The notes beneath the pieces were generated by a model. It made no database searches and was not told the DNA's origin. It was given only the letters and a program-made list of their open reading frames with translations. The position numbers and the translations under genes are program-made. Shown in pieces: positions 12,505-51,100 of a stretch of 64,000 bases of DNA; position 1 is the first letter of the stretch; every line of letters begins with the position of its first letter. The stretch is from a bacterium (GTDB lineage: Bacteria; UBP6; UBA1177), in assembly GCA_016290135.1 (NCBI GenBank), contig JAEESW010000001.1, positions 55,565 through 119,564 of the forward strand, given 5' to 3'.

Positions 12505-14034
12505 ATGAGTAGTTTGCAGAAACTCGCTACTTCAAAAAAACTGGCTGTAATCATCACATATATTTCGCTGATAGTTCATACTTTAAGCAATTTAGTCCTT
12601 ACGCCGCTCTATTTGAATTATCTCGGTCTGGATCAGTATGGTCTTTATCAGATGATTTATACGGTCGCAAGTTATATCCTTATTCTTGATTTCGGCATAA
12701 ACACTGCGATGGTGCGCTATATCTCCAAATATCATGCTACTAACGACTATGAATCTGAGAAGAATTTTTCGGCTCACTGTCTGATCACAGTCGCTACCAT
12801 TATTGTTTTGATGATGGCGGCCGGCCTTATAATGAATGAGTTTTTGTTGGACATATACCCCACAATAACAGCTGAAGAGGCTGGTGTTGCCCATCAGCTG
12901 ATGCTACTGATGCTTGTCGTTGTTTCCGGAACAATATTGGAAAGATTTGTGTCTGGATGTGTATCTGCGTATGAGCATTTTACGGTCAATAATGCGGTAG
13001 GTGTTGTGAAATTAATATTAAAAATCCTTCTGACGATACTATTCCTTTATATCGGTATGGGAGTGATTGCGGTTGTCTTGGTAGATGTGATAGTGATACT
13101 TTTATCAATCATGTTTCGTTCAATATACGCAATCAAACAGTTGCATTTCAAAATTAAGTTGAGCAAGTTCGATTTTACTCTGATCATAGACCTCATTTCC
13201 TTTATGTTTCCCGTTTTTCTTCAGGCCATTATCGGCTATATAAATAATTATGTTGACAAGACAGTGCTTGGTATCATGACATCTAAAGCAGATGTCGCGA
13301 TATATTCGATCGCTACGACTTTCATAGCCTTGTTTAACGCATTGCCTTCCGCTATTTCAGGAGTCTTTTTGCCTAAAGCGACCAAGATGATATTCGGTGG
13401 AAGTTACAACAGTGATGATCTCACGAATTTTGTTATCCGACCAGGCAGATACCAGTTTATGCTTTGCGGAGGATTTGTGTGCGGATTCGCTTTGTTCGGC
13501 AGAGAATTCATCAGTCTGTGGGCCGGACCGAATACTGTTCAGGCATGGACTGTCGCGATGATCATTATTATCCCGAATATGATCCCGTTGATTCAGAATA
13601 CGGCAGTAAGCATTCTGGATGCACTCAAAAAGAGACTTTTCAGATCAGTTGTGCTCTTTGTTGTCTCTGTAATCCATGTCATAATCTCTGTTTTTCTTGT
13701 TGAAAGATACGGGATGATGGGTGCTCCGATTGGCTCGGCGTTTGCATTTATTATCGGATATGGAGTGGTAATGAATATCTATTATCAAAAAGAAATAAAA
13801 ATTCAGGTCGGAAGACTCTTTAAAACCATTTTCTCAAAAACATGGCTGTGTTTGATACCTGCGGTCGCTGTCGGATTTGTCAGCAACAGATTTTTGCCGG
13901 ATTATTCCTGGATCACTTTGGTTGTAAAAGGCGCCGTTTTTAGTGCGGTTTACGGAGTCGCCTTGCTGTTTTACGGATTTAACAATCAAGAAAAAAAGGA
14001 TTTTTCAATCATACTGAAGAAATTCGGAAAGTGA
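12505..14034 (+). CDS. wzx: Oligosaccharide flippase (Wzx, MOP superfamily)
   Basis: 509 aa with about 12-14 TM helices. Typical position as the last gene of the polysaccharide operon. Confidence 0.85.
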   Translation: MSSLQKLATSKKLAVIITYISLIVHTLSNLVLTPLYLNYLGLDQYGLYQMIYTVASYILILDFGINTAMVRYISKYHATNDYESEKNFSAHCLITVATIIVLMMAAGLIMNEFLLDIYPTITAEEAGVAHQLMLLMLVVVSGTILERFVSGCVSAYEHFTVNNAVGVVKLILKILLTILFLYIGMGVIAVVLVDVIVILLSIMFRSIYAIKQLHFKIKLSKFDFTLIIDLISFMFPVFLQAIIGYINNYVDKTVLGIMTSKADVAIYSIATTFIALFNALPSAISGVFLPKATKMIFGGSYNSDDLTNFVIRPGRYQFMLCGGFVCGFALFGREFISLWAGPNTVQAWTVAMIIIIPNMIPLIQNTAVSILDALKKRLFRSVVLFVVSVIHVIISVFLVERYGMMGAPIGSAFAFIIGYGVVMNIYYQKEIKIQVGRLFKTIFSKTWLCLIPAVAVGFVSNRFLPDYSWITLVVKGAVFSAVYGVALLFYGFNNQEKKDFSIILKKFGK

Positions 14035-14094: not shown

Positions 14095-15792
14095 ATGAGT
14101 TATAGTGCAGAACAAAAAACAGTGAGACATTTGTTAACTTCGCAATTATATAGAATCCCGCGTAATCAACGTAAATATGTTTGGGATAAAGATAATTGGG
14201 AAGATTTATTTCTGGATTTAAATTTTGCAACAAAAAATAACTTGAGCCATTTTATTGGAAGTATGGTACTGTTAAAAGATGAAGAAACAGTCGAAGGACT
14301 TCCTCTATTGGTTGTAATAGATGGCCAACAGAGATTATTTACAATCACAATTTTTTTGGCAGCTTTATTGTTCGTCATGAAAAAATATAATTTACAAAAT
14401 GATTATTATGGAACAGAAAAGTATCTTTATGCCACGGATGATAAAAATATTTCACATCATGTTTTTGAATCATCCTATCATCTTGGTCTTGGCAAAATTT
14501 TGACTGCAATACCAAATTTGAAGTTTGGGAGGAATGTTTCCATTGATTCATTCCTTAAAACACATGTTGCGGACAAAATACGTGATAAAAATATAATGGA
14601 TGCCTTCTCTTTTTATGTGGGTAAAATTGAAGAATTTATATTACAACGAAAAGATGATCCCCAGAGTATAACTGTATTAAAGGATGCTATACTTAATACT
14701 GAATATGTTAGAATAGAGGCAACAACTGAAGAGGATTCTTATACTATTTTTGAAATATTGAATGCCCGTGGTCAAACTTTGGCAGATCATGAATTGTTAA
14801 AAAATTATGTTATGAGATATATAGAGCCGAAAGAAAAGGTCGATAATGTAAAAACAGAATGGGAAGATACGGAAAAACTATTGGGACGCGGTATAAATAA
14901 ATATCTTTTACATTACCTGATTCATAGATATAAGGTCGATGAGAATGATAAAAAAGATGCTTATAAAGCAATAAAAAAATATGTGAAAATAACAGATATA
15001 GAATCATTCTATTCTGATTTTATTCAGAAAGCTCAATATTATTCAAAGTTACAGAATCCAAGATTGGTAGACGGTGACGGTAACGAAATTTGTTCAGATT
15101 TGGAGTATTCAATATTTACTTTTTTTAGGAAAAAAAGACAGGAACAATTTCGGCCAGTTATCCTCAGTTTGATGCATCAAAAAGAATTGGGCGAGTTGCC
15201 TATTGAAGAGTATGAGCAAGCATTGGAATTTATTAAAAACTTTTTTGTATGTTATACTATAATCGGAAAAGCAAAATCAAATACGCTTACTTCTATAATA
15301 TCTAGCTATGCGTTTAAATTGGAAAACTCTTTTTCATCAGATTTGTTAAGGGAATTTTTTAAAAGTTTAAAAGATAGGATTCCGAATAAAGATTGGTTTG
15401 AAAAAGCTTTCTCTATGATTGGTTATTCACATCATTTTAAGTTTTATAATGATGATAAGGAAGAAAAAAAGGCAAGATTGGTCTTGGAAATCTATGAAGA
15501 ATCTTTAGGTAATAAAAATATGCCTAAAGAATACACTATTGAGCATATTTTGCTAGATTCTGATGGAGAACAAAATTCCAATATAGGGAATTTGTTACCT
15601 TTAGAGGAAGGTCTAAATAAAAAATGTGCCAATTTGCCTTTGAAAGATAAAATTAAAATTTACAAAAAATCTGATTTTAAAAGCGTAAGAAGATTTGTTG
15701 ATCGATATGAGAATAAAACGGATACCTTTAAAGTAGAAAAGAGAATGTCGCATTTGGCAACAGAATTTTATAAAATTATTAATAAGGCATAA
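14095..15792 (+). CDS. GmrSD-family type IV restriction-like nuclease (DUF262 N-terminal, DUF1524 His-Me finger C-terminal)
   Basis: 'YRIPRNQRKYVW' and 'VIDGQQRLFTITIF' (DGQQR) are DUF262 motifs. The C-terminal 'YTIEHILLDS...NIGNLLPLEEGLNKKCANL' is DUF1524-like. Confidence 0.85.
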   Translation: MSYSAEQKTVRHLLTSQLYRIPRNQRKYVWDKDNWEDLFLDLNFATKNNLSHFIGSMVLLKDEETVEGLPLLVVIDGQQRLFTITIFLAALLFVMKKYNLQNDYYGTEKYLYATDDKNISHHVFESSYHLGLGKILTAIPNLKFGRNVSIDSFLKTHVADKIRDKNIMDAFSFYVGKIEEFILQRKDDPQSITVLKDAILNTEYVRIEATTEEDSYTIFEILNARGQTLADHELLKNYVMRYIEPKEKVDNVKTEWEDTEKLLGRGINKYLLHYLIHRYKVDENDKKDAYKAIKKYVKITDIESFYSDFIQKAQYYSKLQNPRLVDGDGNEICSDLEYSIFTFFRKKRQEQFRPVILSLMHQKELGELPIEEYEQALEFIKNFFVCYTIIGKAKSNTLTSIISSYAFKLENSFSSDLLREFFKSLKDRIPNKDWFEKAFSMIGYSHHFKFYNDDKEEKKARLVLEIYEESLGNKNMPKEYTIEHILLDSDGEQNSNIGNLLPLEEGLNKKCANLPLKDKIKIYKKSDFKSVRRFVDRYENKTDTFKVEKRMSHLATEFYKIINKA

Positions 15793-15797
15793 TGTAG

Positions 15798-15866
15798 TAC
15801 CAAACAAAAACCAGATAGAGTTGGCGGAAAGTGAGTTTATGGTGGCGAAATAAGGCGAAAGCGGAA
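15798..15866 (+). repeat. Direct repeat copy A, starting 6 nt after the GmrSD stop
   Basis: 'TACCAAACAAAAACCAGATAGAGTTGGCGGAAAGTGAGTTT...'. Its 5' part matches copy B (16652-16702) and its 3' part matches copy C (14025-14066). Confidence 0.65.
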
Positions 15867-15915
15867 AAGGAACCAAATGATTGATGTCTGGAAAATGTGA
15901 ATGGAGGGAGATGAA

Positions 15916-16651
15916 ATGGGAAAGAAAAAGTCTTCGAGGGTAATATCAACTGCAGATGTTGAAATGGCGCAAAATTGCAAAATTGTGCTTCCTAGGAAGC
16001 ATAGGGAAGATATTGATCCGTATCAAACATTTTCTGCCAATATTGAAAGAGCAGAATATTTTATTGAATTATACAAACAAAAGATAAAAGTGAGGGCCTG
16101 TAAGGGACGCCCGCCAATATCTGATACTGATATGCTTAGGGCAGGGGTGGTTTTTTTTACACTCCACAGTGGAAGAATATTTGAGAACAATTATTAGACG
16201 GCGCAAAATTTCCTTGTTGAAAAGTAATGAATCTTGGAACGATGTATTGCGGGATGTTTCTCTTCCTGGCAGAAATTACGGAAAATCAACTGCAGCAAAA
16301 ATAGAGCTAAATGAATTGTTTGAATACAAGGATAAGACTGTTTTGGAGTTGGTTCAGGACGCTTTAAATGAAAAGGTGGATTATTTAACATTTAATGACT
16401 ACTCTCAGATTGTTAATTCTTTGAAATCAGTGGGAATAAGGTTGCCTAGCAAAGATAAAGAAATAGATTGCGAAAGTATAAATTCCTATATAAAAAGACG
16501 TCATAAAATTGTCCATGAAGCAGATAAAAACGAGATTGCAGGAAAAGGTAACTATCGCACTCAATCAATTAATTCTAATCAATTAAAAAAATGGGTTGAG
16601 GCGGCAAAAGTTCTTGTCGATAAAATTAATGAAATATATGCGCAATTATAG
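15916..16651 (+). pseudogene. HEPN-superfamily protein (Rx4H 'RHKIVH'), reading frame broken at a T8 run (16151-16158)
   Basis: Track ORFs 15901-16197 (frame 1) and 16169-16651 (frame 2) overlap. Frame 2 is open from 16094. Removing one T from the T8 run joins '...DMLRAGVVF' to 'LHSTVEEYLRTIIRRR...' as one ORF of about 245 aa. The second ORF has no good start (GTG, no RBS). Confidence 0.6.
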
Positions 16652-16702
16652 TGCCAAACAAAAACTGGATAAAGATTCGGCGGAAAAGGGAAAGTGAGTG
16701 TA
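16652..16702 (+). repeat. Direct repeat copy B, starting immediately after the HEPN stop
   Basis: 'TGCCAAACAAAAACTGGATAAAGATTCGGCGGAAAAGGGAAAGTGAGTGTA'. Hand alignment gives about 38/45 identity to copy A, with a 7-nt insertion. Confidence 0.65.
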
Positions 16703-16795
16703 GGTAAACCCCGCTTCTTTTCTCTGGGAACGACCTGATATTTTTCTGACCTTTCTTTGTTTAAAAAAATCTTAATTTTTTTTCAAAAGAGACCC

Positions 16796-16823
16796 TTGAA
16801 ACTGGGGAAAGTGTGTCTATAAG
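16796..16823 (+). promoter_or_regulatory. Putative sigma70-type promoter of the CBASS-like operon
   Basis: TTGAAA (16796-16801), 16-nt spacer, TATAAG (16818-16823). Lies about 50 nt upstream of ATG 16871. Confidence 0.4.
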
Positions 16824-16870
16824 AGACGGCATGATTTTCACAAAAGTGGAGTCAGAGGAGTTTTTGGGGG

Positions 16871-17707
16871 ATGAGGAAGTTGATGAACAAAATTGTAGAC
16901 TGGAAAAGAGAATACGTACAAACAGCATTGTTGACTTTAATTATTGTCGCCAATGTCTGTTTTAATTTACCTGAAATTGCGAAGAACGTATTAGCAGATG
17001 CCTCAGTTCAAATGTCTGAACTAGATCCTAAATGGCGTCTTGCTATTGGTTTTGGTCGATGGGTATTTGCTATAGTTGTTGTTGTAGGATTATGGTTTGT
17101 CATCAAATATTTCAATAAGGATTATGTCTTAAAGCAAAATATTTCCAATGATATAGTCTGGCATACATATTTTGATTACTGGTTTTGTCGGTATTTTTTG
17201 AGCATAAAAAAGTTGTCTTTGACCAGAATGCCGATACCTATGCAGTTTAAGCTCGTGTGGAAGGATCTCTTTTTAGAGTATGATTATATGGACGGCATCA
17301 CAGAAAAGGAAGAGGCTAAGGATAAGGTAAAAGTTGAACGATTTCAGGATAATCCTCTGACATCTACAGTTAACCTTGTTCTTGCAGATACCTACCCGCT
17401 GGATTGGAAAAGCAAGCTCCCTGCATCGGTCCTAAATCTTACGACTATTGTGATAGACCGCACAGGTGAGAAAGGCACTAGATACTATAGTCGGGATTTT
17501 GTAAAAAAGATTTCATCAACAGTACATGATCTTCCAAACAATGTGACGACGATCAACCTGTTTGCAACGATTAATGCTGCTCACTGTTACCATATAACAA
17601 AGGAGGTGTTTATGACGGGAGGCAGAGACTCGCTGAAGCATCTTGTCGTCTATGAACAATCAAAGGGTAGTTGGGTTTTTGAGGGGAAGAATATAAAAGT
17701 GTTTTAA
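16871..17707 (+). CDS. Two-TM membrane protein with an unassigned C-terminal domain of about 190 aa; candidate CBASS effector/sensor (SAVED/CARF-like?)
   Basis: Hydrophobic helices 'TALLTLIIVANVCFNL' and 'WVFAIVVVVGLWFVIKYF'. The C-terminal segments 'VNLVLADTY' and 'TINLFATINAAHCYHITKEVF' look like Rossmann-like beta-strand/loop elements. The gene ends 11 nt before the CD-NTase gene. Confidence 0.45.
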   Translation: MRKLMNKIVDWKREYVQTALLTLIIVANVCFNLPEIAKNVLADASVQMSELDPKWRLAIGFGRWVFAIVVVVGLWFVIKYFNKDYVLKQNISNDIVWHTYFDYWFCRYFLSIKKLSLTRMPIPMQFKLVWKDLFLEYDYMDGITEKEEAKDKVKVERFQDNPLTSTVNLVLADTYPLDWKSKLPASVLNLTTIVIDRTGEKGTRYYSRDFVKKISSTVHDLPNNVTTINLFATINAAHCYHITKEVFMTGGRDSLKHLVVYEQSKGSWVFEGKNIKVF

Positions 17708-17718
17708 GGAGATTAAAA

Positions 17719-18888
17719 ATGGCATACTCGAAAGAACAGTTAGAACGTATTTTTAGTGATTTGGCTGCCAGGATAAATATTAGCGATGCCCTATTCAAAG
17801 TAGCAGATGAAGAGTACACAGCCTTGGGCAAATGGATCAATAATGAAACAGAAAAGAATGGCACGAAGTATAAAGTTCTCATATATCCTCAGGGGTCGTT
17901 TGCTTTAGGAACAGTAATCAAGCCGATATCTGATGAGGATGATTATGATCTGGATCTGGTATGCCTGGTCGAGAACGGTATGAACTTTTCTGCTAAGCAG
18001 TTGAAGTTGGATGTCGTGAAACCTTGGCTTATAGGATATAAGAAAACCAAGAATGACATTGAAGAGAAAAGGCGTTGCTGGCATTTGGAGTATGAGGATG
18101 TTCCACACTTCCACATGGATGTTATTCCTGCAATACCGAGTCCTTTTCCCAACTCTGATAGTACAATTAGCATCACGGATAAAAATGTCGATAGATCTCC
18201 GGTTTATGAATACCAAGAGAGCAATCCCAAAGGGTATGTACAATGGTTTTTTCAACGCTGCCGCCAGAAGAAGATGGGAAGTTCTGGCCTGGAGGTTATG
18301 AGCGAGATGGCTCAACAGGAGGATTTGAAGCGAAATAAGAATAAGACACAACTTCAGAAAGCTGTACAAATTTTGAAGCGTCATAGAGATGTAATGTTTA
18401 AGGACGATCCAGACAACAAGCCTATCTCTATCATTATTACAACTCTCGCTGGTCAGATATATCATGGAGAAACTACTATTCTTGATACGCTTCTTGGATT
18501 TGTTGGAGAAGTAGAGCACTATCTGAAATCTCATTGCAAAGAAGATGGCAGCTATAGTATTCCAAATCCGAGTTATAATGGTGAAGATTTTGCAGACAAA
18601 TGGAAAGATCATCCGGAGAGGCAAACTGCATTTTTCTCTTGGATTAAACAGTTGCAGTCTGATTTCAATCTTGAAAATCTTATGAACCAAGATCGTGTAG
18701 CGATGGGCAATATCGTAAAAGAAGCATTCGGCTCTACCACAGGAAAAGCAATATTCAGCCAAATGGGATATGAAGAAGCTAATGAAGTTAAAGATGGAAT
18801 TCGGAAAGTTGACACAGTAACAGGTAATTTATCAAAAACCGGAATAGTGGCCATTTCTCCAAGTAGGCATTATGGCGAGATTCAATAA
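17719..18888 (+). CDS. cGAS/DncV-like nucleotidyltransferase (CD-NTase, SMODS-type)
   Basis: 'YPQGSFALGTVIKP' (GS motif), 'DDYDLDLVCLV' (DxD) and 'FHMDVIPAIP' (third acidic residue). 389 aa. Sits between a TM protein and an E2-like protein. Confidence 0.8.
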   Translation: MAYSKEQLERIFSDLAARINISDALFKVADEEYTALGKWINNETEKNGTKYKVLIYPQGSFALGTVIKPISDEDDYDLDLVCLVENGMNFSAKQLKLDVVKPWLIGYKKTKNDIEEKRRCWHLEYEDVPHFHMDVIPAIPSPFPNSDSTISITDKNVDRSPVYEYQESNPKGYVQWFFQRCRQKKMGSSGLEVMSEMAQQEDLKRNKNKTQLQKAVQILKRHRDVMFKDDPDNKPISIIITTLAGQIYHGETTILDTLLGFVGEVEHYLKSHCKEDGSYSIPNPSYNGEDFADKWKDHPERQTAFFSWIKQLQSDFNLENLMNQDRVAMGNIVKEAFGSTTGKAIFSQMGYEEANEVKDGIRKVDTVTGNLSKTGIVAISPSRHYGEIQ

Positions 18889-19327
18889 ACCTATTACCTT
18901 GGCACAGCAAGAGATTAAGCTGAGAAAGGTATATCCCAACCTCATTGATAAAATTAGTGTGTCACGCAATGAATTGAGCTGTGTAATGAGGCTTCAGCCG
19001 ACTGCAGAAAGCAGAGAATATAAGGTAAATATTAGGTTCAAAATTGGATCTTGGCCCAAAGTAAAACTGGTGGATCCCAAAGAAATAGTTTTGGTAGACG
19101 GGAAGAAGCCACATCATCTTTACGGCAGAAGTGTTGATGGTGGGGAAAGGCTTTGCGTGTTTTATCCTAAGGACTGTGGGTGGACGGATAACCACTTCTT
19201 GGCAGATACATTTGTTCCATGGGTAATCACTTGGTTGAGTGCTTATGAGATCTGGCAAATTACAGGTGTTTGGGTCTATCCAGAATATGTTGATGGTAAG
19301 CCAAAGCAAGATCAAACTAAGGACTAG
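18872..19327 (+). CDS. Minimal E2 (UBC)-like protein, Cap2-short-like
   Basis: 151 aa. 'KKPHHLYGRSVDGGERLCVFYP' mimics the E2 HPN-x(n)-Cys active-site region (H81/H82, C95). 'FVPWVITWLSAYEIWQITGVW' follows. The start overlaps the CD-NTase 3' end by 17 nt. Confidence 0.5.
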   Translation: MARFNKPITLAQQEIKLRKVYPNLIDKISVSRNELSCVMRLQPTAESREYKVNIRFKIGSWPKVKLVDPKEIVLVDGKKPHHLYGRSVDGGERLCVFYPKDCGWTDNHFLADTFVPWVITWLSAYEIWQITGVWVYPEYVDGKPKQDQTKD

Positions 19328-19396
19328 AGATTTCGTATATTCCGTCCTAATGACAAACAAAATTTTTAACATCCCCATCTTGAAATGAGGTTTGAT

Positions 19397-19419
19397 GCAG
19401 GAATTATTAATTCCCCTGC
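19397..19419. terminator. Possible bidirectional hairpin between the convergent E2-like and HEPN genes
   Basis: GCAGGAATTA-T-TAATTCCCCTGC is an imperfect stem with a 2-nt bulge. It overlaps the last codons of the minus-strand ORF. There is no clean T-run. Confidence 0.3.
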
Positions 19420-20291
19420 TGTTTTAGGAAATACAGCAAAACCGTGTTAAGGACATCCGTAAAAAGCCAAAGCATCCTGGAAACAAAAAGTGGAGTTAGC
19501 ATTTCTTTGTCGATGTTCTTCCAATGTGCTAATGAATTCCGGATGTTAAGCCCTATACCATTAGACTCAGATAAGAGAAATTGAAGACTTTTCAGATGAT
19601 CATAATTAAAAATTTGTTCTATTTTTTTGTCCCAAAGCAATGTCCCGAGAGTTTTTCCGCTTTTGTTTTTATTTTTATTTTTGTCTCCTTTCTTTGTTTT
19701 ATCATCTTTTTCTTCAGGTATATTTTTGCTTTCATTTACATATGCTATTCTCAACAATTTTTCGATTATAGCACATGTCAGGCTTTCTATGGTGTAGCAC
19801 ATGGAATGCAATACTATTTCGGGACACTTATTCTGATTTCTGAGGATATATTCTAAGTTTTCGTGCAAAAAATCGACATCTTTTAATAAATTCTCGTCGT
19901 TGCTGGTTTCTTTATTGATAAGAGAAACGATGTTCTAAATTGATGCTATGTATTTATTCAAAGCATCGGGGCGGCTCATAAATCCCTCTAGTAAACCAGA
20001 ATACATTACAGAATATGCTAACAGCTGTGTTTTGCGCTCAACTGTAAAATACGGGTCTTTGTCTGGTTTGTCATTGTTATATTCTGGTATCGAATTTAAA
20101 ACTGCTATCAATTCTTCATGAACATTATCCGCGAGATAACTGATATATTTAGTATCTCCGTCTTTAATTTCTTTGTGATGAGTGATTTCAAGTAGTTGTT
20201 CTTCGAGTGGTAAGTTTGGATCGAGATTTTCTATCCATCGTTCCAGAAGATAATTCAAATTGCGCTTAGGCTGATTTTCTTGATCTGTCAT
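19407..20291 (-). pseudogene. HEPN-superfamily protein ('NIRNSLAH', DUF4209-like RNxxxH) interrupted by a single in-frame TAG (19935-19937)
   Basis: Track ORFs 19935-20291 and 19407-19868 are in the same frame. The 22 codons between them (NIVSLINKETSNDENLLKDVDF) contain no stop. The downstream ORF begins only at TTG with no RBS. The upstream ORF has AAGGAG 7 nt before ATG 20291. The combined reading frame is 294 codons. Confidence 0.6.
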
Positions 20292-20478
20292 AACAAAACT
20301 CCTTTTTTCAATAACAATAATCTGTTCTCTTTGTTTTCATTCCAAATATACATTGTGTTTGAAAACGCCATTATAAATAAGCACTTTCCCTTGAAGTCAA
20401 GAGGCTGACATGGATTCTTACGTATAAATTTTGGTGAAGTAACAAATTGTGACTTCACCAGATTCGACAACACCTCAT

Positions 20479-20508
20479 GACTGAGAGGACGGAGCTGTCA
20501 CAAATCGA
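20479..20508 (+). repeat. Copy 1 of the short motif pair GACTGAGAGGA / GGAGCTGTCACAAATCGA
   Basis: The same two blocks recur in swapped order at 21560-21588 (GGAGCTGTCGCAAAGCGA/CTGAGAGGGA). Confidence 0.5.
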
Positions 20509-20555
20509 TAAATGAAAAATTTAAAATTCGGTTAAAATAAAAATCTAAAAATAAT

Positions 20556-20583
20556 TTGACTTTTAAAAATAAGTGACTATATT
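20556..20583 (+). promoter_or_regulatory. Putative sigma70-type promoter of the MNT/HEPN operon
   Basis: TTGACT (20556-20561), 16-nt spacer, TATATT (20578-20583). Confidence 0.55.
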
Positions 20584-20591
20584 ACTTCCAT

Positions 20592-20669
20592 CGGTGAGTC
20601 CTACCGTTAAGTGGAATCTTTAAAAGCAGTGAACCCTACTGTGAGTGGGAACTTTAAAAGCGGTGAGAA
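20592..20669 (+). repeat. Tandem direct repeats (35 nt, 34 nt and a 9-nt partial) in the 5' leader of the MNT/HEPN operon
   Basis: R1 is CGGTGAGTCCTACCGTTAAGTGGAATCTTTAAAAG (20592-20626). R2 is CAGTGAACCCTACTGTGAGTGGGAACTTTAAAAG (20627-20660). The partial CGGTGAGAA runs into ATG 20670. Hand alignment gives about 26/35 identity. Confidence 0.7.
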
Positions 20670-21011
20670 ATGAACAAGAAGATGATTGACAGCGCGATGA
20701 AGGACCTCGCGGCTGAAGCAAAAAACATATACGGTGAAAAACTGAAAGAAGTGATTCTTTTCGGTTCTTGCGCAAGAGGCGATTTCGAGGATGACAGTGA
20801 TGTTGATATAATGATCCTTCTCGATGTGCCGAGAAGCGAAGTCGAAGAAGCCAATCACAAAATGGGTTCCGTGATAAGCAGACTTGATAAAAAATATGAA
20901 TACGAACTTCTGTTTTCCCCCATTGTGCAGAGCTACAGCGAGTTCAATTACTGGATCGAAGCCCTTCCTTTTTATCAAAATGTCCGTAAAGAAGGCATAA
21001 GGTATGCGTGA
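20670..21011 (+). CDS. Minimal nucleotidyltransferase (MNT) antitoxin of an MNT/HEPN pair
   Basis: 'ILFGSCARGDFEDDSDVDIMILLD' (GSxxRG...DxD). 113 aa. Overlaps the HEPN gene by 8 nt. Confidence 0.85.
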   Translation: MNKKMIDSAMKDLAAEAKNIYGEKLKEVILFGSCARGDFEDDSDVDIMILLDVPRSEVEEANHKMGSVISRLDKKYEYELLFSPIVQSYSEFNYWIEALPFYQNVRKEGIRYA

Positions 21012-21417
21012 AATCAGCCAGCAGGCAAAAGATTTGTCGATATATCGACTGGAAAGAGCGAAAGAAGACTGTACCGCTGCCGAAAACAATTTAGGGCTTA
21101 AAGATCTCAGAACTGCAGTAAACCGCGCATATTATGCTATATTTCATGCTTTGAGAGCGGTTCTGGCACTTGACGAATACGACTCTAAGAAACACAGCGG
21201 AATCATAAGCGAATTTCGTCTGCGCTATGTCAAAACCGGCATTTTCGACGAAGAAATATCCGATATGATCGGCAAAGCATTCCAGGTAAGGAACAAGTCT
21301 GATTATGAAGATATGTACATCGTTAGCAGAAACGATACCGAAATTCAGATACGAAACGCAAAAACTATTATTGACGCGGTCGAAAAATATCTGAAAGACG
21401 AAAAAATAATCGGCTGA
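21004..21417 (+). CDS. HEPN-domain toxin of an MNT/HEPN pair
   Basis: 137 aa and all-helical. 'AYYAIFHALRAVL' and 'FQVRNKSDYED' are classical HEPN (PF05168-type) motifs. Confidence 0.85.
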   Translation: MREISQQAKDLSIYRLERAKEDCTAAENNLGLKDLRTAVNRAYYAIFHALRAVLALDEYDSKKHSGIISEFRLRYVKTGIFDEEISDMIGKAFQVRNKSDYEDMYIVSRNDTEIQIRNAKTIIDAVEKYLKDEKIIG

Positions 21418-42102: not shown

Positions 42103-45100
42103 ATGAGAAAGATTTTTTGTGTACTTGTACTGTTATGTTCAATGTTTTTCATGCTGAGCTGCGGCGGCGGCAGCACGGAAAACACGCCGGCACAAGACGG
42201 TGACGCAGTAAGCGACGAAGATGCCGTCACGGACGAAGATCAGACCGACACTGAAAACACCGATACAGACGATACCGGCGATACGGTTGACGACACTTCC
42301 GACACGGAAGAACCTGATGGCGACACAGACAGCGGTGACAACAACAAGAAGCAGGGCGAGCTTTACGGCAGGTGCTATCCGAACAAAACCTGCAACGAAG
42401 GGCTTGAGTGCGATGAAGAAAACGATACATGCATAAAAAAGCAGAAAGACGATTCCGACACTTCCGATACAACTGACGACACCGACACTTCCGATACAAC
42501 TGACGATTCCGACTCAGACACTTCGGATACCGGAACAACGGATAACGATATACCGGGCGGTGACAATGATAACGAAACTCCTGACAACGACACTCCTGAA
42601 AATCTTGAAGCAACCGAAAACCACAAAATCAGCGGTTCATACCAGATCGGCAGCAATGTTTCGGGAATCGAGACAGCCCTTTATGAATGCGGCGGAACCG
42701 AAAAAATTGCTTACGGAAACACTGACACAAAAGGAAAATACAGTTTCAATGCTGCGATTTCGGCAACGAAGACTTACTGCGTAAAAGCGGGAGATTTTGC
42801 AAGCTGTTTCATTGGTATGAGCGACCACACGGCGAACATTTCGGAAATCACGAACGCGGTTGCACTCGTCAATTCTGACTGCTCTGATTTAAGAGCAGGT
42901 GAAACAAAAATCAGAAAATACGCAAAACTGGGAACCGGCGAATGGCTGGGCGAGCTCGATTACTCGAAACTTTCCGGCATCAAAGAAGGGCTCAAACTTC
43001 TTTCAAACTATCTCAACACGACAAACAGTAAAACGCTTTCTTCAAAAATAGCTGAAGATGCAAAGAAAGAAACTCCTGAATTCGCGAAATTCTTCAACGG
43101 TTTCAGGGTTTTTGCCGATAAGGCAGAAATAATCATAGGTGAAACCTCTGACAGCAGTGCAAATTTTGCTGTTGAAGGCGGCAGCACCAAAGTTGCACAG
43201 GGCTTCAAAATCCAGTGGACTTTGAAAAACAAATCGGCTGAAGCCGCTGTCTACAAATTCACAACTTCCGCTCCCGGCGAATATGTTGCAAGAGCAAAAC
43301 TCGTTTACAGCGGCACCACCCTTTCAGATGATTCAACAAGCGTTCTTTTCCTTCAGAGAAAGAGCGGCGGCACAGTTTATCTGAATAATAAATCGAAAAA
43401 TATTTCGTTCAGAATCGATGACGGTATTTACGGCGTCATTCCTAAGAATACTGTTGTTAAAAAGAACGGAAGTCCTGTAAATTCAATTAGTTACGATGTT
43501 CTCTCGGCAGGCGGGAATCAGGTTTCGCGTCTTAAATTTTATCCTGAAGGCGCAGTTTTCGAGGGCGACACGATGTACTTTGTCCACGAGCTCGGCACTG
43601 TTTTCGGCGGCGACCCGATTATGCTTTCGGCAAAGAGAACAAACGCAAACGGCACAGTCGATGTGCTCAATTCCGCGGCGGGCGACCCGATTATGATGGC
43701 TGCGGCAGGAGATCCCATCATGACAACAGCTGCCGGTGACCCGATCATGCAGGCTGCTGCGGGCGATCCGATTATGACTTCGGCTGCCGGTGATCCGATC
43801 ATGACGGCTGCGGCAGGAGACCCGATTATGACTTCGGCAGCGGGCGACCCCATAATGACCTCAGCTGCCGGCGATCCTATAATGTCGGCTGCGGCAGGCG
43901 ACCCGATCATGACAAGTGCGGCAGGTGACCCGATTATGACGAGCGCAGCAGGTGATCCGATCATGATGGGAACAAGCTCAAGTGCCATGATTTCCCAGAC
44001 AGGCCACTACTCAACATTCACGGTTGAAGCGGCATCCCTTCCTGTTTCAGTTGAAGCTATGGTTGCAAGATGGTGCGACGGCTCATTCTACCGCGGATAT
44101 TCACCTCTTGAGTTCATAAAAAAAGGTGTAACGGACAACAATCCTGAAAGCACTCTTCTTCCGTATCTCACCTGCGAAAAGTTCGGTGATCTCGGAAACG
44201 ACCTTTACGAGCTTATGAACAAACAGATCGGCTTCCAGAGAAACCTCAATCTTTTCGAGAACCTTTTCTTTGTAAACGAGTTCTACAACCGCATGAATGC
44301 AAAGCGTGAAAGCGGTGCAGTTGCTGCGGTTAAGAACGGTCTTGAATTGCGTAGCGCAATAGCTGCTCTCTACACGGCAACGACTTCCTACAACAGAAGC
44401 ACGACTCTTGCCTACATGTTTGATTCGTCAATGATTCCCCTGACTTACAGCGGCGTAATTCCTGAAGATTATACGTCAAAGGCAAAGAGTGCAGTCACCG
44501 GAAATTCAGATTCGGGTGATAAATACACCGCAACGAAGAAAGAAATGATGATTTTTGCGAACTACATCACAACTTCTTCAAAAGGACCGGACTTCAACAA
44601 CGTTTCCTCTGTTCTTAATCCTGACCAGCTTGTCTGCGCATGGTTCAATCCCGACACACCTGCCCAGAACTGCAACAAGGTTTACACAATCAACGATGCA
44701 GGTCATGTAACTTTGGGCGGAACAGAAGTAAGCGTAGCAGAAGCCAATGCAATCTTTACAAAATACTTCATGCCGATGAACAGCAGACTCAGTGATTCAG
44801 AAAAACTCGACCTTTTCAGAACGCTCTACCTCGCACTCAAATACGCTGGAACAATATTCTATAACGGCAGCGACATCGAAGAGCTCAACGGAAAACTTCT
44901 CAAAACTGCATACCTTGTTTTTGACGGAATTGACGGCAACGCAAAAGCAGTCAGCATAGTTGATTCTTTCGACGCTTCTGCTCACACGGTGCAGGTTCTT
45001 GACGGCAATGAAATGGCGACAAGACCTTACATCCAGAAGCTGAGCACACTCACTGATCAGATTTCACTCAAAGTTGCTGCATCGAGTGCAGATGTTGAAA

Positions 45101-48100
45101 AAGTTCTAATCAGCATCGAAGGAAAAGAATTTGAAAAAGTTCAGGAAAATACGAGGACTTACTACAAACAAACCGGTGATCTCAAGGAAAAATCTATAAT
45201 TCTCACTCCCGGCACACTTTCGCAGGGCGAAAAGGCTCTCAAAGACCTTCTTGGCAGCGAAAATGTCGATTCACTCGGCAACATCACCGGAAAAATGACG
45301 ATAGTCGCTAACTCCAAGATCTCGAACAAAACCTATTCGACTCAGAAAACCTACGAGTTCTTCGTCAACAATGACGGTGACGGCGTCAATTCAAAGGAAG
45401 TTCCGGCAGATCTCGAGATTTTTGTCAATGATTCAACAGGTCATCCGGTTCCCGACAATGCAAATCCGATGATAATCCTGAATCCCGGCAACAAGGTTTA
45501 CTATCCTGTTGACGGCAGAGTCAGCATAGAAAACCTTACTCCTGCGGCATACACAGTTGATGCATTTGCTGACGGATATTATGCAAAGAGCACAAGCGTA
45601 AATGTTCCTGCCGGCGCAGCATTCAGCGTTGAGATCAGGCTTGACGAAGAGCTTACAAGCACAGCTGATGCTAGCCTTGAGCTTTCTGTAACAATTGATA
45701 CGGCAAAACATCCGTCGAAAGTTTACATCCAGATTTACAACGACGACATGGAACTTGTTGCAAACGAAGCGGCTAAATTCAGCGATGAAACCGGCACTTA
45801 CAAAAATGTAAATATTGAAATCAATTCAGGCAGATACACACTTCTCGCAGTAGGTGAAGAGCTTTACAATTACCTTGAAGCAATCACGCTTTACGAAGGT
45901 GCAAACACTAAGGAAATCAAGGTTGTAGCAAAGAACGCATGCGGAAACGGCATAGTCGATTCAGCAGAAGAGTGCGAACCGGCACTTGCAGCTCCTGTTT
46001 CCTGCGGAACGATCTATCCGGCTTCGACCCATCCTGAAAAAACTGCGACATGTGATCCGAATACATGCACGTTTGACAAGCAGGAATGCGGAAAAGCGGC
46101 ATACTGCGGCGACGGCATCCTTGATGCAGGCGAAGGCTGTGACGGCGGAGCAAAAGACTGCTCAGAAATAGCAGGCTTCGGCAATTCAAGAGGCACGGCA
46201 CCGTGCAAAAATGACGACTGCTCGGGTTACATCACTGCAAACAACTGTACAAGAACGACAGCTTCATGCGGAACACTTCCTGCAAACGCACAGTGGAATG
46301 ACGGCGAAGGGACATTTGCACAGACTTATGACGGCACAGACTGGGCTCCTACTGCAAAAGCGGCTAACTACGGTCTCACAACGGAAGAATGCACATCCTC
46401 GTGCACAAAAGGCTACAAGTGGAGCGGCAGCCAGTGCCTTGAAAGCCCGCTTTCACTTGCACTTGTCTGCACAGGTGAAACCGATTGCTTCGACAGCAGC
46501 TCAGCAACCGAATGTCCTGCTTACGGAGAGGCATTCTTCGGTCAGGACGCACAGTATGCAGAAAACGGCTACTGCACGAAGCACGACTTCACGACAAGCG
46601 GCAGCGGTGACAACCAGATTGTAAAAGACAAGTTTACGCACTACGAGTGGCAGGCGGTTTCATCAGGCAATGTTACCTGGTCAGAAGCCGAAACATACTG
46701 CTCGCGTCTTGAAAACGGCAGTTCGACGGCAGTCTGGAGAGTTCCGACGCCGGCAGAGTTGCTCACAATTGTTGACAGCAGCAATGCAAGCCCGGCACTT
46801 GACAACAACTACTTCACTGTTTCGGGTCACACATTCTGGGCAAGTGAAGATAAGAAAAATACGGAAAACGCTTGGAGAATTGATGAAAACGGTGCACTGA
46901 CAAGTGTTGCAAAAACGGAAAGCCATCATGTTCTCTGCGTAAGAGTAAATGACTACGATGCAACTGAAAACCGCTTCACTGCAACTGATGAGACTGTAAA
47001 AGATAATGAGAGCGGCTTAATGTGGCAGAAACAGGCGGTTGCTTCAAGAACATGGGCAGAAGCTCTCAACTACTGCGAAGAAGTTTCCATGGCAGACAAG
47101 TTTGACTGGAGACTCCCGAACAGAAACGAACTTGCGTCCCTTGTTGACTACACGAAAGCAAACGGCACAATGAGTGATTTCCCGTCAATAGCTGCAAAAG
47201 GTTTCTGGGCTTCGACAACAGATATCAATGCAGCGTCAAAGGCATGGACAGTCGATTTTGCAGACGGAAGCATCAAATCCGCAGATAAGACTGACACGAA
47301 GTACATAATATGCGTAAGAAACGACGAGCCGTGCTTCGGCGATGAATGCGCTGATCCGTGCGGCTTTGCTCCATGCAAAAACATGGCAAATTCGACAGGT
47401 CTCTGCACGGCAGGCGACTACGATTTCACATGCGGCTGCAAATCGGGCTTCAACTGGAACCACGCAAAGTGTCTCCTTGACACGACAAGATATGTTGCAT
47501 GTGACGGTCTGCCTGAAAACGCGATCTGGAACACCGTTTTCGGTATCAGCCAGACTTATGACGGCGACAAATGGTATCCGAGCAATATCGGTACATTCAA
47601 CAAGATTTCAAGCAACGTTGAATGCCGCTTTGTCTGCGCAACCAACTACAAATGGGATGCAGATGAAGAAAAATGTCTTCCGGTTTCAAGAGTTGCGAAC
47701 TGCTCTGAAAAGAAACCCTACTCCGACTGGAACGTAGTTTACAAGATCTCTCAGACATGGGACGGCGAAAAGTGGGAACCTTCGGCAGAATCTGAATACA
47801 ACCCTGAATCAAGCGAAGAAGAATGCCGCTTTGTATGTAAGGAACACTACAACTGGGACAGCGAAAACAATCTCTGCGATCCTGAGAGACAGCCGGCGGC
47901 ATGTACAGGACTTCCTGCAAACGCAGTCTGGAACAGCGCTACGATAGAGCAGACATGGAACGGCACGTCTTGGGCACCGACAGCAACAGGAACCCACACA
48001 ACCGGCAATGCAACCGACAAATGCTATTTCAAGTGCATTGACGAAGGTGACAAGTACGAATGGAAAAACGGCGCATGTTCCGCGAAACCGAAAACGGCTC

Positions 48101-51100
48101 AGTGCGCAGGCCTTCCTGACAACGCAGAATGGACAGGCGGATATTCAAGCATAACGCAGACATGGAACGGAAGCGAATGGTTCCCGGGCAATGCAGGAAC
48201 TTACAACACAGAAATAAATTCCGCATACTGCCGCTTCAAATGCCTTGCAAACTACAACTGGAACGGTTCGACCTGTGAACCGAGAACACAGATAGTAACC
48301 TGCGGAACACTTCCTGCCAATGCGGTTTGGAACACAGTTTCACAGATCAGGCAGACTTGGAACGGTTCGGAATATACACCTGCGGTAAATCTGATATACA
48401 GTGAAACTTCAAGCGAAAGTGAATGCCGCTACACCTGCAAAGAAAACTACGAATTTAAAAACGACGCATGTGTCGCAAAGAAACAGACTGTTGCCTGCAC
48501 CGGACTTCCGGCAAACGCAGTATGGAACAGTACAACAGTCGTCCAGGAATGGAACGGCACGACATGGGCTCCCGAGACAACCGGAACCCACACAACCGGC
48601 AATGCAACAGACAGATGTTACTTCAAGTGTATTGATGAAAATGTCAAATTCGACTGGGATACGACAACCAGCACATGCAAAGGTCATACCAATTCAAATG
48701 TTGCCTGCAACAACAACTCAATTCCGGCAAACGCTTCATGGTGGAACGCAAATATCAACCAGACATGGAGCGGAACGGAGTGGCTTCCGACGACGACAGG
48801 CAGCTTCAGCAACAGTGCTGTTGATAACCAGTGCCGCTTCAAATGCAACAGCCACTACAGCTGGAACGGCGCGACATGCGAAGCAGAGACAAAGATTTCA
48901 TCCTGCGGAACACTTCCGGCAAATGCTGAATGGAACACCGCTTCAAGTATAGAGCAGCACTGGGACGAAAGTGCTTCCGGATTTACTCCGACTCTCACTC
49001 CGGAATACGGCACTGAGGCTACGACAGCTTACTGTCGCTTCAAATGCAAGGAAAATTACGAGTGGAAGAACGGTTCATGTCAGGCTAAGACAAAAACCGT
49101 TGCATGCACAGGACTTCCGGCAAATGCGGTATGGAGAACGAGCTCTTCTGGAACAGGCAGCTCATTCAGTATAACGCAGAGATGGAGCGGCACAGAATGG
49201 ACTCCGTCAACAACAGGAACACACGGCTCCTTCATTTCAGGTCAGTGCCGTTTCACGTGTGCTGATGAAGGCTATAAGTTCAAATGGGAGAACAACGCAT
49301 GCCTGCCGAACACAATCACAGATCAAGAGTGCGAAGGACTGCCCGACAACGCAGAATGGACAGGCGGTTTCTCAACTATATCTCAGACATGGAACCCGGC
49401 TACCAACAGTTTTGAACATGGTCTTTGGGCAACATTCGCTACCGAGGCGGATTCCGCTTACTGCCACTTCAAATGTAAGGAAAACTACACTTGGACCGGT
49501 CTTGAAGACGATACAGCCGATGACGGAGAATGCGTTGCAGACACAAGAAAGATAGATTGCAAAAATCTACCTGAAAACGCGGTATGGAACTACGTTCCGA
49601 CTATTACCCAAACTTGGGACGGCAGGGAGTGGCTTCCCAAACTTGAACCGAAATACAATGTTGTCGGAAGCGAAGATGAATGCCGCTATATCTGTGATGC
49701 AGGTTATTATCCGCTTGACGGCCAGTGTGTTGGCAATCCATGCAGTTACAGCCCGTGCAGCGGTATTGACTATGCAAGCGGAACATGTTTGGAAAATGGC
49801 AATCTGCTTCTTTCATACGCCTGTGAATGCAGCGGTGAAAACTACTGGTGGGGCAAGACCGGCTGCCGTTCACAGAATGCGGCTCTCGGAAATTTGTGTA
49901 CCGGTACTATTAAATGTTTCAATAACGGTGCTGAAATAGGCTGCCCGGAATCTTCGTCAGGAACCGGTGAAAACTATAATTTCTACGGTCAGGACGCATA
50001 CTATGCGGAAGCAGGTTTCTGCGCTCCCAAAAACTTCTCACTCATAGGAAGCGAGCCTTATACTATAACTGTTGACAATGCTACAGGTCTTATGTGGACG
50101 AAGAATCCTTCCGACTACCAAGGTGTGAGTGCTGCCAGAACTTACTGTTCAGAACTCAGTTACGGCGGTGAGACCGGCTGGAGACTTCCCTCCATCAAAG
50201 AGCTGATGACAATATTTGACAATAGTATGAGAAATCCTGCAGTAGACACGAAATATTTCAATATCGAAGACGATGTCTGGTCAACAACTCCTTTTGTAAG
50301 TGATTCGGAGGTTCCGAGTATTTGGATCTTCGACTCTGACAACGGCTATGTCGGCGCTATGCCAACTCTTATTTATACAGCGCCTGCCATTTGCGTAAAG
50401 GGAACTATGACAGAGAATCCGGTGTTTGGAACTATAGCAGGAACTAATGCCGTGGTCAAAGACAGCACAACAGAACTTTACTGGCAGAAAGGCTATGCAA
50501 CAGACAAAACATGGCAGGGAGCCATTGAATACTGCGAAAATCTGACGTTGGGCGAATATTCGGATTGGAGGCTTCCGAATTACAATGAACTTGCTTCTAT
50601 TATTGATTTCACCAGAAAAGATCCTGCCGTTAACACAACATATCTTAGTATGCCGACTAGCGAAACAGAGTATTTCTGGACTTCAACAACAAGACAAGAC
50701 TCTTCAGACAAAGCTCTTGCATTTGATTTTAAATCTGGTGCTCCAAAATCCAGTATCGTAAAATCAGAACTGAACTATGTCCGCTGTGTCCGCTCCGATA
50801 TCTGCGGTGAAGGAAAATTCCTGTCAGGTAAAAACTGTATCGATACCCCGTGTACTTCAAGTTCATGCTCTTCAGTCTCTTATTCAGACGGAATATGCAC
50901 ACCGCTTACTGAAAGCAAATACTCATGCGGATGCGTTGACGGATACACTTGGGAAAGCTCGACTTCAAGCTGCATACCTGATCCTTGCATTACCGACAAC
51001 GAGTGCGTTTCTATGGAAGGTTCAGACGGAATATGCACACCTGATGACGGAAAAATCAAATGCGGATGCGTTGACGGTTATTTCTGGAACGGTTCGAGGT

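Follow-up and report, generated by a model that had tools for sequence, protein, structure and literature searches.

What does the small protein with two hydrophobic N-terminal helices do whose gene lies directly upstream of a cGAS/DncV-like nucleotidyltransferase (CD-NTase) gene in a bacterium of the UBP6 lineage (UBA1177), and is its soluble domain one half of a nucleotide sensor or a whole one? The gene lies in a stretch of 64,000 nucleotides (nt), here called the window (assembly GCA_016290135.1, contig JAEESW010000001.1, positions 55,565 to 119,564 of the forward strand), and all coordinates without a locus name refer to it. The original prediction, made from the letters alone, described an unassigned protein with two transmembrane (TM) helices and a single CARF/SAVED-like unit. 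The protein belongs to the SUa-2TM family of effectors of CBASS, the anti-phage system that signals through cyclic oligonucleotides. It is quite probable that it acts as the effector of a three-gene E2-type CBASS operon, in which a membrane-anchored, compact SAVED-like sensor would breach the membrane when triggered by a nucleotide.

The open reading frame (ORF) is clearly a real gene, because 46 homologues were found at E ≤ 1e-3 in a word-indexed search and an exhaustive profile search returned 303 clusters at 50% identity, nearly all of 260-300 amino acids (aa) and matched end to end. The Pfam family PF18179 (SUa-2TM, "SMODS- and Ubiquitin system-associated 2TM effector domain") was found in 46 of the 46 homologues. 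In the effector itself it is the sole Pfam match, with a score of 122.4 bits (cut-off 25; E 2.9e-35), and it spans residues 3-268, which correspond to profile positions 4-268 of 279. In addition, the PADLOC model PDLC00672 (CBASS "Effector 2TM") was matched over the full length (E 7.8e-55) and PDLC02015 ("SAVED7--SAVED_TM") with an E value of 4e-50. NCBIfam has no model for the protein, the SLATT Pfam families gave no match at E ≤ 0.1, and the TM module was not matched by the Saf-2TM Pfam family. The effector thus carries the family profile, the two TM helices and the association with SMODS and ubiquitin-system genes that define SUa-2TM. That the protein is unassigned is contradicted by the PF18179, PDLC00672 and PDLC02015 matches and by a tested system of the same architecture (PMC11381338).

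Identity to the nearest reference-genome homologue, from a Succiniclasticum metagenome-assembled genome (MAG; locus L001), is 44%, and to the nearest metagenomic homologue 85%. Phage genomes returned 0 homologues of the effector. On plasmids homologues were found in 24 records, at least 2 of which were also matched in the cyclase search, with effector and cyclase genes 1-2 kb apart; the two plasmid searches both returned 14 Lactiplantibacillus records. Concerning the translation start, the NCBI annotation gives a product of 278 aa, and a second in-frame ATG at 16883 (M5) would give one of 274 aa. This second start was used by one gene caller (P0001, 274 aa, 100% identical), and the N-termini of the homologues start at "MxxxIxDW", equivalent to M5, which is probably the true start of the protein.

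The effector is followed by two further genes on the same strand (Table 1). The cyclase gene begins 11 nt past the effector stop codon, and the E2 gene starts within the cyclase gene, sharing its last 17 nt. For the cyclase, matches were obtained to Pfam SMODS (PF18144, 3e-13), the DncV-like NTase family (PF21654, 1.3e-10) and PADLOC PDLC00780 (3.5e-110), and among solved structures it is closest to 9woo ("cyclic GMP-AMP synthase", 1.4e-51), SmCdnG (8hsb_A, 6e-26) and 7ljn. The E2 protein, in which the cysteine motif "LCVFYP" is conserved, was matched by PADLOC PDLC00864 (1.3e-33), by SmE2 (8hsb_B, 1.1e-13) and, in precomputed matches, by PF26395 (E2-CBASS). Among the neighbouring ORFs no match to E1/ThiF or JAB was found with Pfam or PADLOC. 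Because a stand-alone E2 is present and neither E1/ThiF nor JAB lies nearby, the order effector-cyclase-E2 is assigned, by gene content, to type II short CBASS (E2-CBASS). CD-NTases of E2-CBASS are reported to be longer than those of E1E2/JAB systems, to belong mostly to clade G and to be linked covalently to E2 through a conserved C-terminal Gly (PMC12948482). The cyclase, with 389 aa versus 344-369 aa in the E1E2/JAB loci and an end in "...HYGEIQ", fits these features; its tail "...SRHYG-EIQ" is kept in the E2-only operons L001, L017 and L018. A promoter and terminator scan of 15700-20700 gave sites no more numerous than in shuffled sequence, and no promoter is therefore assigned; scanning the window for Rfam families and tRNAs gave no match.

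Table 1. Features of the CBASS operon and of its effector in the window.
Feature	Coordinates	Strand	Evidence
CBASS effector gene, SUa-2TM family	16871..17707	+	ATG-to-stop ORF, 278 aa
TM helix 1, residues ~12-34, invariant Q17	16904..16972	+	Hydropathy; AlphaFold2 helix 12-31
Inter-TM loop, residues ~35-58, predicted extracellular	16973..17044	+	AlphaFold2 secondary structure; charge
TM helix 2, residues ~59-82	17045..17116	+	Hydropathy; AlphaFold2 helix 63-82; conservation
Predicted reduced first lobe of SAVED-like domain, residues 84-160	17120..17350	+	AlphaFold2; whole-domain Foldseek alignment
Predicted complete second lobe of SAVED-like domain, residues 161-278	17351..17704	+	AlphaFold2; hhalign; conservation
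CD-NTase, CdnG-like cyclase, 389 aa	17719..18888	+	Pfam, PADLOC and PDB matches
E2-only regulator, 151 aa, "LCVFYP" cysteine C95	18872..19327	+	PADLOC, PDB and Pfam matches

The same association was found in relatives. An SUa-2TM gene lies within a CBASS operon at seven out of seven reference-genome loci and for 5 further homologues that were looked up in their assemblies, and two architectures occur, effector-cyclase-E2 and cyclase-E1E2-JAB-effector. The first is present at L001, where cyclase and E2 are 60% and 57% identical to those of the window, and in the effector-SMODS-E2 operons of P0038, P0026 and P0033 (44-52% identity). The second is present at L002, L003 and L007, where the effector follows cyclase, E1-E2 (Cap2) and JAB (Cap3), and in the SMODS-E1E2-JAB-effector operons of P0044 and P0043 (35% identity). 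At L004, L005 and L006 the locus is truncated, and an E1 and/or JAB gene is still found upstream. Among these ~12 contexts there was none without a ubiquitin-like gene and none of type I (cyclase and effector only). The original prediction had named homologues that never lie next to CD-NTases as a finding that would speak against it; the opposite was observed, with a CD-NTase gene adjacent wherever the contig allows. In a related setting, L008, the effector slot upstream of a cyclase with ~40% identity, fused to an AGS-C domain, is occupied by Cap5, an HNH-SAVED protein.

Two side observations were made at these loci. A DUF2971 gene lies directly 3' of the E2 gene at L001 (7543..8604), L011 (7043..8104) and L018 (6446..7342), but not in the window, and it could be an accessory gene or a neighbouring defence gene. 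L004 (1684..4527, Clostridiales) contains an apparently truncated CBASS with a ThiF (E1) fragment and JAB upstream of the effector; the ORF preceding the ThiF fragment has an N-terminus that resembles a serine recombinase, which is a putative assignment.

Two strongly hydrophobic helices had been expected at the N-terminus, and they were found both by hydropathy, where Kyte-Doolittle (KD) windows of 19 residues reach values ≥ 1.4 only at residues 15-41 and 54-84, and in the AlphaFold2 (AF2) model. TM helix 1 has a family mean KD value of 1.99 and charged residues are nearly absent from it. TM helix 2 contains a conserved G-[RK]-W and its C-terminal end is the conserved basic "IRKxNK", in which N82 is invariant. 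In the AF2 model the inter-TM loop holds two short amphipathic helices (33-43 and 53-60). Across an alignment of 43 sequences the net charge is +2.0 for the N-terminus and -0.14 for the inter-TM loop, and the TM2 end and the following segment are basic. From this charge pattern, by the positive-inside rule, both termini are predicted to be cytoplasmic, which would place the soluble domain where the CD-NTase product would be, with the two TM helices as its anchor in the inner membrane.

The original prediction had proposed structure prediction and a Foldseek search as a check, and these gave a nucleotide-sensor (SAVED) fold for the soluble domain. AF2 models were built with the 43-sequence alignment. 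The full-length model has a pLDDT of 90.5 and a pTM of 0.87, with no segment below 50, and the model of the soluble domain alone (residues 84-278) a pLDDT of 90.3 and a pTM of 0.89. Both were compared with the PDB by Foldseek, for which the best 50 matches were listed. For both models all of these are SAVED receptors (probability 1.00, E values down to 1.5e-6). They include 3TM-SAVED with 2'3'-cyclic GMP-AMP (cGAMP) (9wq2, 9wq3), LlCap5 and its SAVED domain (7rwm, 7rws), AsCap5 (7rwk), PsCap5 (8fm*), Cap4 (6vm6, 6wam, 7yib), the SAVED domain of BtCap14 (9om7) and the SAVED-Lon protease CalpL (9eyi), and among them neither a stand-alone CARF protein nor a Cap15 barrel was found with either model. 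The soluble domain (195 aa) aligns over 192-200 columns, with TM-scores normalized to the query (TMq) of 0.54-0.57 to Cap5 and 0.56 to the BtCap14 SAVED domain. Normalized to the target (TMt) the values are 0.43-0.44 for SAVED-only chains of 255-262 aa, with a root-mean-square deviation (rmsd) of ~5.5 Å over ~198 columns.

In the model the first lobe (84-160) consists of two helices and five short strands and contains the invariant strand-loop-helix "SLTR-xPIPxQF". The second lobe (161-278) follows a Rossmann-like beta-alpha-beta order with its six strands and three helices. The alternating beta/alpha elements noticed earlier are present throughout residues 100-276, and the three peptides quoted as examples occupy residues 167-179, 190-202 and 227-247 of the translation. 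Across the family 23 positions are invariant, many of them polar and located at strand ends: H98, R119 and Q125 and, as invariants of the second lobe, N168, D173, T174, Y175, R197, R204, N229, T233, N235 and Q263. The soluble domain is therefore best described as a predicted compact sensor of SAVED-like type, whose second, CARF-like lobe is complete and whose first lobe is shortened.

Several points weigh against the assignment as a SAVED-like nucleotide sensor. The soluble domain was not matched by Pfam PF18145 (SAVED) even at E ≤ 1, and searches of the PDB sequences with phmmer and with the family hidden Markov model returned no SAVED chain at E ≤ 10. Comparing the family profile with a 29-sequence Cap5 profile by hhalign gave E values of 0.05-0.13 and probabilities <2%, whether whole or cropped to lobes. 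When the two lobes were compared with each other (84-160 versus 161-278) the E value was 0.2 and a duplication was undetectable; Cap5's own internal duplication reaches only E 0.0017. The TM-scores of 0.54-0.57 barely exceed the same-fold threshold, with an rmsd of ~5 Å, and the description of lobes and pocket derives from secondary-structure strings and a weak alignment. In addition, the cyclase is nearer to 9woo than to SmCdnG and neither of them fixes its product, and the accessible literature yielded nothing on ligand binding, structure or oligomerisation of any SUa-2TM protein. As far as the models go, the relationship to SAVED is visible at the level of the fold only.

The profile alignments that were obtained agree with the fold result in a suggestive way, and they were not counted as evidence for homology. 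The alignment to the second lobe of Cap5 is co-linear (E 0.046-0.13). Under relaxed settings a non-significant alignment is co-linear over both lobes and pairs effector residues 96-273 with residues 167-370 of a Cap5 (P0193), while the Cap5 SAVED domain stays unmatched over its first ~50 residues. It places "LSLTR-MPIPMQF" on the Cap5 ligand loop "SvFALAPQPLL" and "INLFATINAAH" on "hvFPAMPaSLAV". The contacts of LlCap5 to 3',2'-cGAMP, namely I208, R234, S274, R281, F304 and T344 (PMC8568899), were placed on P0193 and then, through this weak alignment, on the effector. In this non-significant alignment S274 corresponds to the invariant T174, T344 to I234, which is flanked by the invariant T233 and N235, I208 to the invariant R119 in "SLTR", and R281 to W179. 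This would fit a putative pocket within a single chain that is fed by both lobes. Separately, an enrichment of invariant positions at the C-termini of strands was counted by hand (10 of 22 observed versus ~5.6 expected); it was too weak and was set aside.

Family membership, operon context, topology and predicted fold are shown here and form the frame of the mechanism that we propose. By analogy with Cap5, Cap4 and Cap14 we infer ligand binding, the identity of the ligand, oligomerisation and the mode of membrane damage. Phage infection would relieve the covalent restraint that E2 would impose on the CdnG-like CD-NTase, upon which a cyclic nucleotide would be made, probably an isomer of cGAMP that contains a 2'-5' linkage, an identity that is a guess. 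The nucleotide would enter a pocket built from strand-to-helix loops of both lobes of one chain. Its binding would lead to back-to-front oligomerisation from sensor to sensor and thereby cluster the TM hairpins, the membrane would be breached and the cell would die ahead of phage maturation. The ligand-driven oligomerisation is, by analogy, likely a stacking of complete sensors and not the completion of half-sites. Pore formation by the same stacking has been predicted for 2TM-SAVED effectors (PMC8568899), and BtCap14 (TM-SAVED) binds 2',3'-cGAMP at ~11 nM and conducts ions once activated (PMC10402079). For Cap14-class effectors a 2026 review describes, from work of that year, ligand-induced dimers and then filaments, membrane fissures and non-specific permeability (PMC13434031).

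The original prediction had taken the soluble domain for about half a SAVED, a single CARF-like Rossmann unit of which two protomers would have to pair into one binding site in the manner of dimeric CARF proteins, so that dimerisation is the switch. With 195 aa the domain is indeed shorter than crystallised SAVED domains of 255-262 aa, its first lobe comprises only ~77 aa, the ~50 N-terminal Cap5 residues mentioned above stay unmatched, and one family member (P0183) consists of the TM hairpin and the second lobe only. However, it has ~75% of the length of a structural SAVED domain and not half, and it equals in length the Pfam SAVED model with its 190 positions, which in a Cap5 cover residues 182-372. 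For a target of 255 residues a TMt of 0.44 corresponds to ~112 perfectly superposed residues; with an rmsd of 5.5 Å over ~198 columns the alignment therefore spans far more than one lobe of ~125 residues, and such a lobe could not reach a TMt of 0.43-0.44. The whole domain superposes on two-lobed SAVED structures, stand-alone CARF proteins are missing from the best 50 matches, and residues 84-160 carry their own invariant strand-loop-helix. The first lobe went unrecognised in the original prediction because all three of its example peptides come from the second lobe. The models thus do not support a single-lobe SAVED or a half-site that needs dimerisation, and we regard this alternative as very improbable. 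What stands of the earlier view is the nucleotide-sensor fold class, the membrane anchor and the adjacency to a CD-NTase; the single unit and the half-site coupling of ligand binding to membrane disruption are not supported. Its second proposal, a Cap15-like effector with two TM helices and a cyclic-dinucleotide-binding C-terminal beta-barrel, resembles the effector only in general plan: both occur in CBASS and have a pair of TM helices at the N-terminus and a small soluble domain at the C-terminus. It was rejected at the level of prediction, and its chance is practically nil: the AF2 model shows an alpha/beta fold that includes five helices, the best 50 PDB matches are all SAVED and include no Cap15 structure in either Foldseek search, and the effector belongs to a different Pfam family, PF18179.

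Two other explanations accept more of the present data. The soluble domain might serve as a docking or modification module for E2 or E1E2/JAB, and the effector would be activated through conjugation or through contact to the complex of cyclase and E2. Every context found has an E2 or E1E2 and JAB gene and type I is missing from the ~12, the family name records an association with the ubiquitin system, and a match to any ligand-binding SAVED is lacking at the sequence level. Nevertheless, the fold search points specifically to SAVED receptors that sense nucleotides, the E2 of E2-CBASS is reported to act on the C-terminus of the CD-NTase and not on effectors (PMC12948482), and the related cyclase of L008 pairs with Cap5, a bona fide SAVED effector, in the same slot. 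Co-inheritance with certain clades of cyclases can account for the link to ubiquitin-like genes, and the docking or modification module appears very improbable to us. Alternatively, the same sensor could drive another output, in which the TM hairpins form a ligand-gated, ion-selective channel instead of an oligomer or filament that ruptures the membrane non-specifically. A preprint on BtCap14 describes a chloride conductance gated by 2',3'-cGAMP (PMC10402079), the polar invariants Q17 and N82 are located where the TM helices end on the cytoplasmic side, and the G-[RK]-W of TM2 is conserved. Against this, the later work summarised in the 2026 review describes filaments, fissures and non-specific permeability (PMC13434031), and a TM module without a Saf-2TM match makes the transfer of channel properties weak. 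We consider a selective channel unlikely, and a compact SAVED-like sensor joined to a membrane-rupturing TM hairpin remains the preferred reading.

Within the preferred reading a further variant can be formulated, which is speculative and unlikely. SUa-2TM could represent a SAVED reduced to a minimum: its first lobe, cut to ~75 residues, is joined directly to TM2, and either the ligand signal passes straight to the TM hairpin or a neighbouring protomer completes the pocket. If true, either geometry would differ from the Cap14 filament model of activation. Two unusual family members were observed. P0183 (198 aa) has two TM helices and the second lobe only (PF18179 positions 161-278), and lacks the first lobe; it could have arisen by a deletion or be a minimal form that still works, and it gives a hint that the second lobe may by itself be a functional unit. 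In P0151 (369 aa) the soluble domain, at 177-354, is preceded by ~180 residues without TM helices, for which only a sub-threshold match to Big_2 was obtained. This protein could represent a domain swap or an artefact of gene calling or assembly and was not used as evidence of modularity.

The CBASS operon lies in a defence island of low G+C content (14095..21417; 0.31-0.41 versus 0.47-0.51 in the flanks), which is inserted between a polysaccharide flippase gene (12505..14034) and UDP-glucose dehydrogenase genes (21621.., 22942..). The operon of the 52%-identical homologue at L017 is also located among glycosyltransferase and epimerase genes; therefore, this type of CBASS operon entered surface-polysaccharide clusters at least twice. 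Besides CBASS the island contains GmrSD, a RiboL-PSP HEPN gene, DUF4209 fragments and an MNT/HEPN pair. The GmrSD-family protein (565 aa, 14095..15792, + strand) was matched by GmrSD_N (1.2e-28), GmrSD_C (4.7e-7) and PADLOC HEC-06 (6.7e-60) and, judging from these matches, is likely a type IV, modification-dependent restriction enzyme.

The RiboL-PSP HEPN gene (15901..16651, + strand), directly upstream of the CBASS operon, is split into ORFs of 98 aa and ~145 aa in different frames, with a T8 homopolymer at 16151-16158 in their overlap. A fused translation restores PF18735 positions 4-189 of 191 with 48.5 bits; the second ORF alone covers 43-189 with 39 bits. The gene could be a frameshifted pseudogene, phase-variable or the result of a homopolymer assembly error. 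The split is also present in a JGI contig, which is probably from the same sample. On the minus strand two ORFs follow the operon (19407..19868, 153 aa; 19935..20291, 118 aa), of which the former matches DUF4209/EMARD_N in part (2.3e-7) and weakly resembles Csm6-like HEPN models; both look like what is left of a longer defence gene. At the island's edge a nucleotidyltransferase gene (PF01909/Polbeta, 20670..21011, + strand) overlaps a HEPN gene (PF05168, 21004..21417, + strand), and the pair is a typical MNT-HEPN toxin-antitoxin module. Far from the island a giant ORF of 3,305 aa (42103..52020, + strand) contains six Lcl C-terminal domains (PF07603, E 8.8e-136) and presumably encodes a very large surface or secreted protein.

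On this basis the effector can be annotated as CBASS SUa-2TM (TM-SAVED-like) and the three genes as an E2-type CBASS operon in a defence island. Architecture, context and fold assignment are already known from public databases and one experimental paper, and in this respect the finding is largely ordinary and raises no new question. The experimental paper concerns the lactococcal type II CBASS pUCCL620_247/246/245, which has the same architecture and for which anti-phage activity has been published (PMC11381338). By analogy with that report the window operon may protect against phages as well. The lactococcal system is plasmid-borne in Lactococcus, whereas the copy in the window is situated in a chromosomal defence island. 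TM effectors of CBASS have been numbered as Cap13 (TM-STING), Cap14 (TM-SAVED), Cap15 (TM-barrel) and Cap16 (TM-NUDIX). No Cap number for SUa-2TM was found in the accessible literature, and the PADLOC label is SAVED_TM. The C-terminal domain of Cap15 is a beta-barrel, whereas that of the effector is predicted as an alpha/beta SAVED-like fold.

The best match for the fold of the soluble domain is Cap5 (HNH-SAVED; 7rwm, 7rws, 7rwk, 8fm1; TMq 0.54-0.57), which partners CdnG-type cyclases with E2 in type II short CBASS (PMC8568899). Its SAVED domain is a clear member of PF18145 (E 1e-48) and its output is an HNH nuclease, whereas the window effector lies outside PF18145 and carries TM helices. Cap14/TM-SAVED (BtCap14; 9om7, 9wq2, 9wq3; TMq 0.50-0.56) resembles the effector in combining an N-terminal TM module with a cytoplasmic sensor of SAVED fold, and it is the best-studied mechanistic model, from nucleotide binding through oligomer or filament formation to membrane failure. 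In contrast to Cap14, the effector has no sequence similarity to the 9om7 and 9wq2 chains and is not matched by the Saf-2TM or SAVED Pfam families. Its sensor comprises 195 aa with a reduced first lobe, compared with ~262 aa in Cap14, and two TM helices are predicted instead of three. Work on Cap14 concerned a type I operon of two genes, in which CdnB is its partner, whereas the effector described here belongs to an E2-type operon. The AF2 model suggests the smallest SAVED-like sensor so far that is joined to a membrane module, and next to Cap14 such a compact sensor could serve as a minimal system for the coupling of nucleotide binding to membrane disruption.

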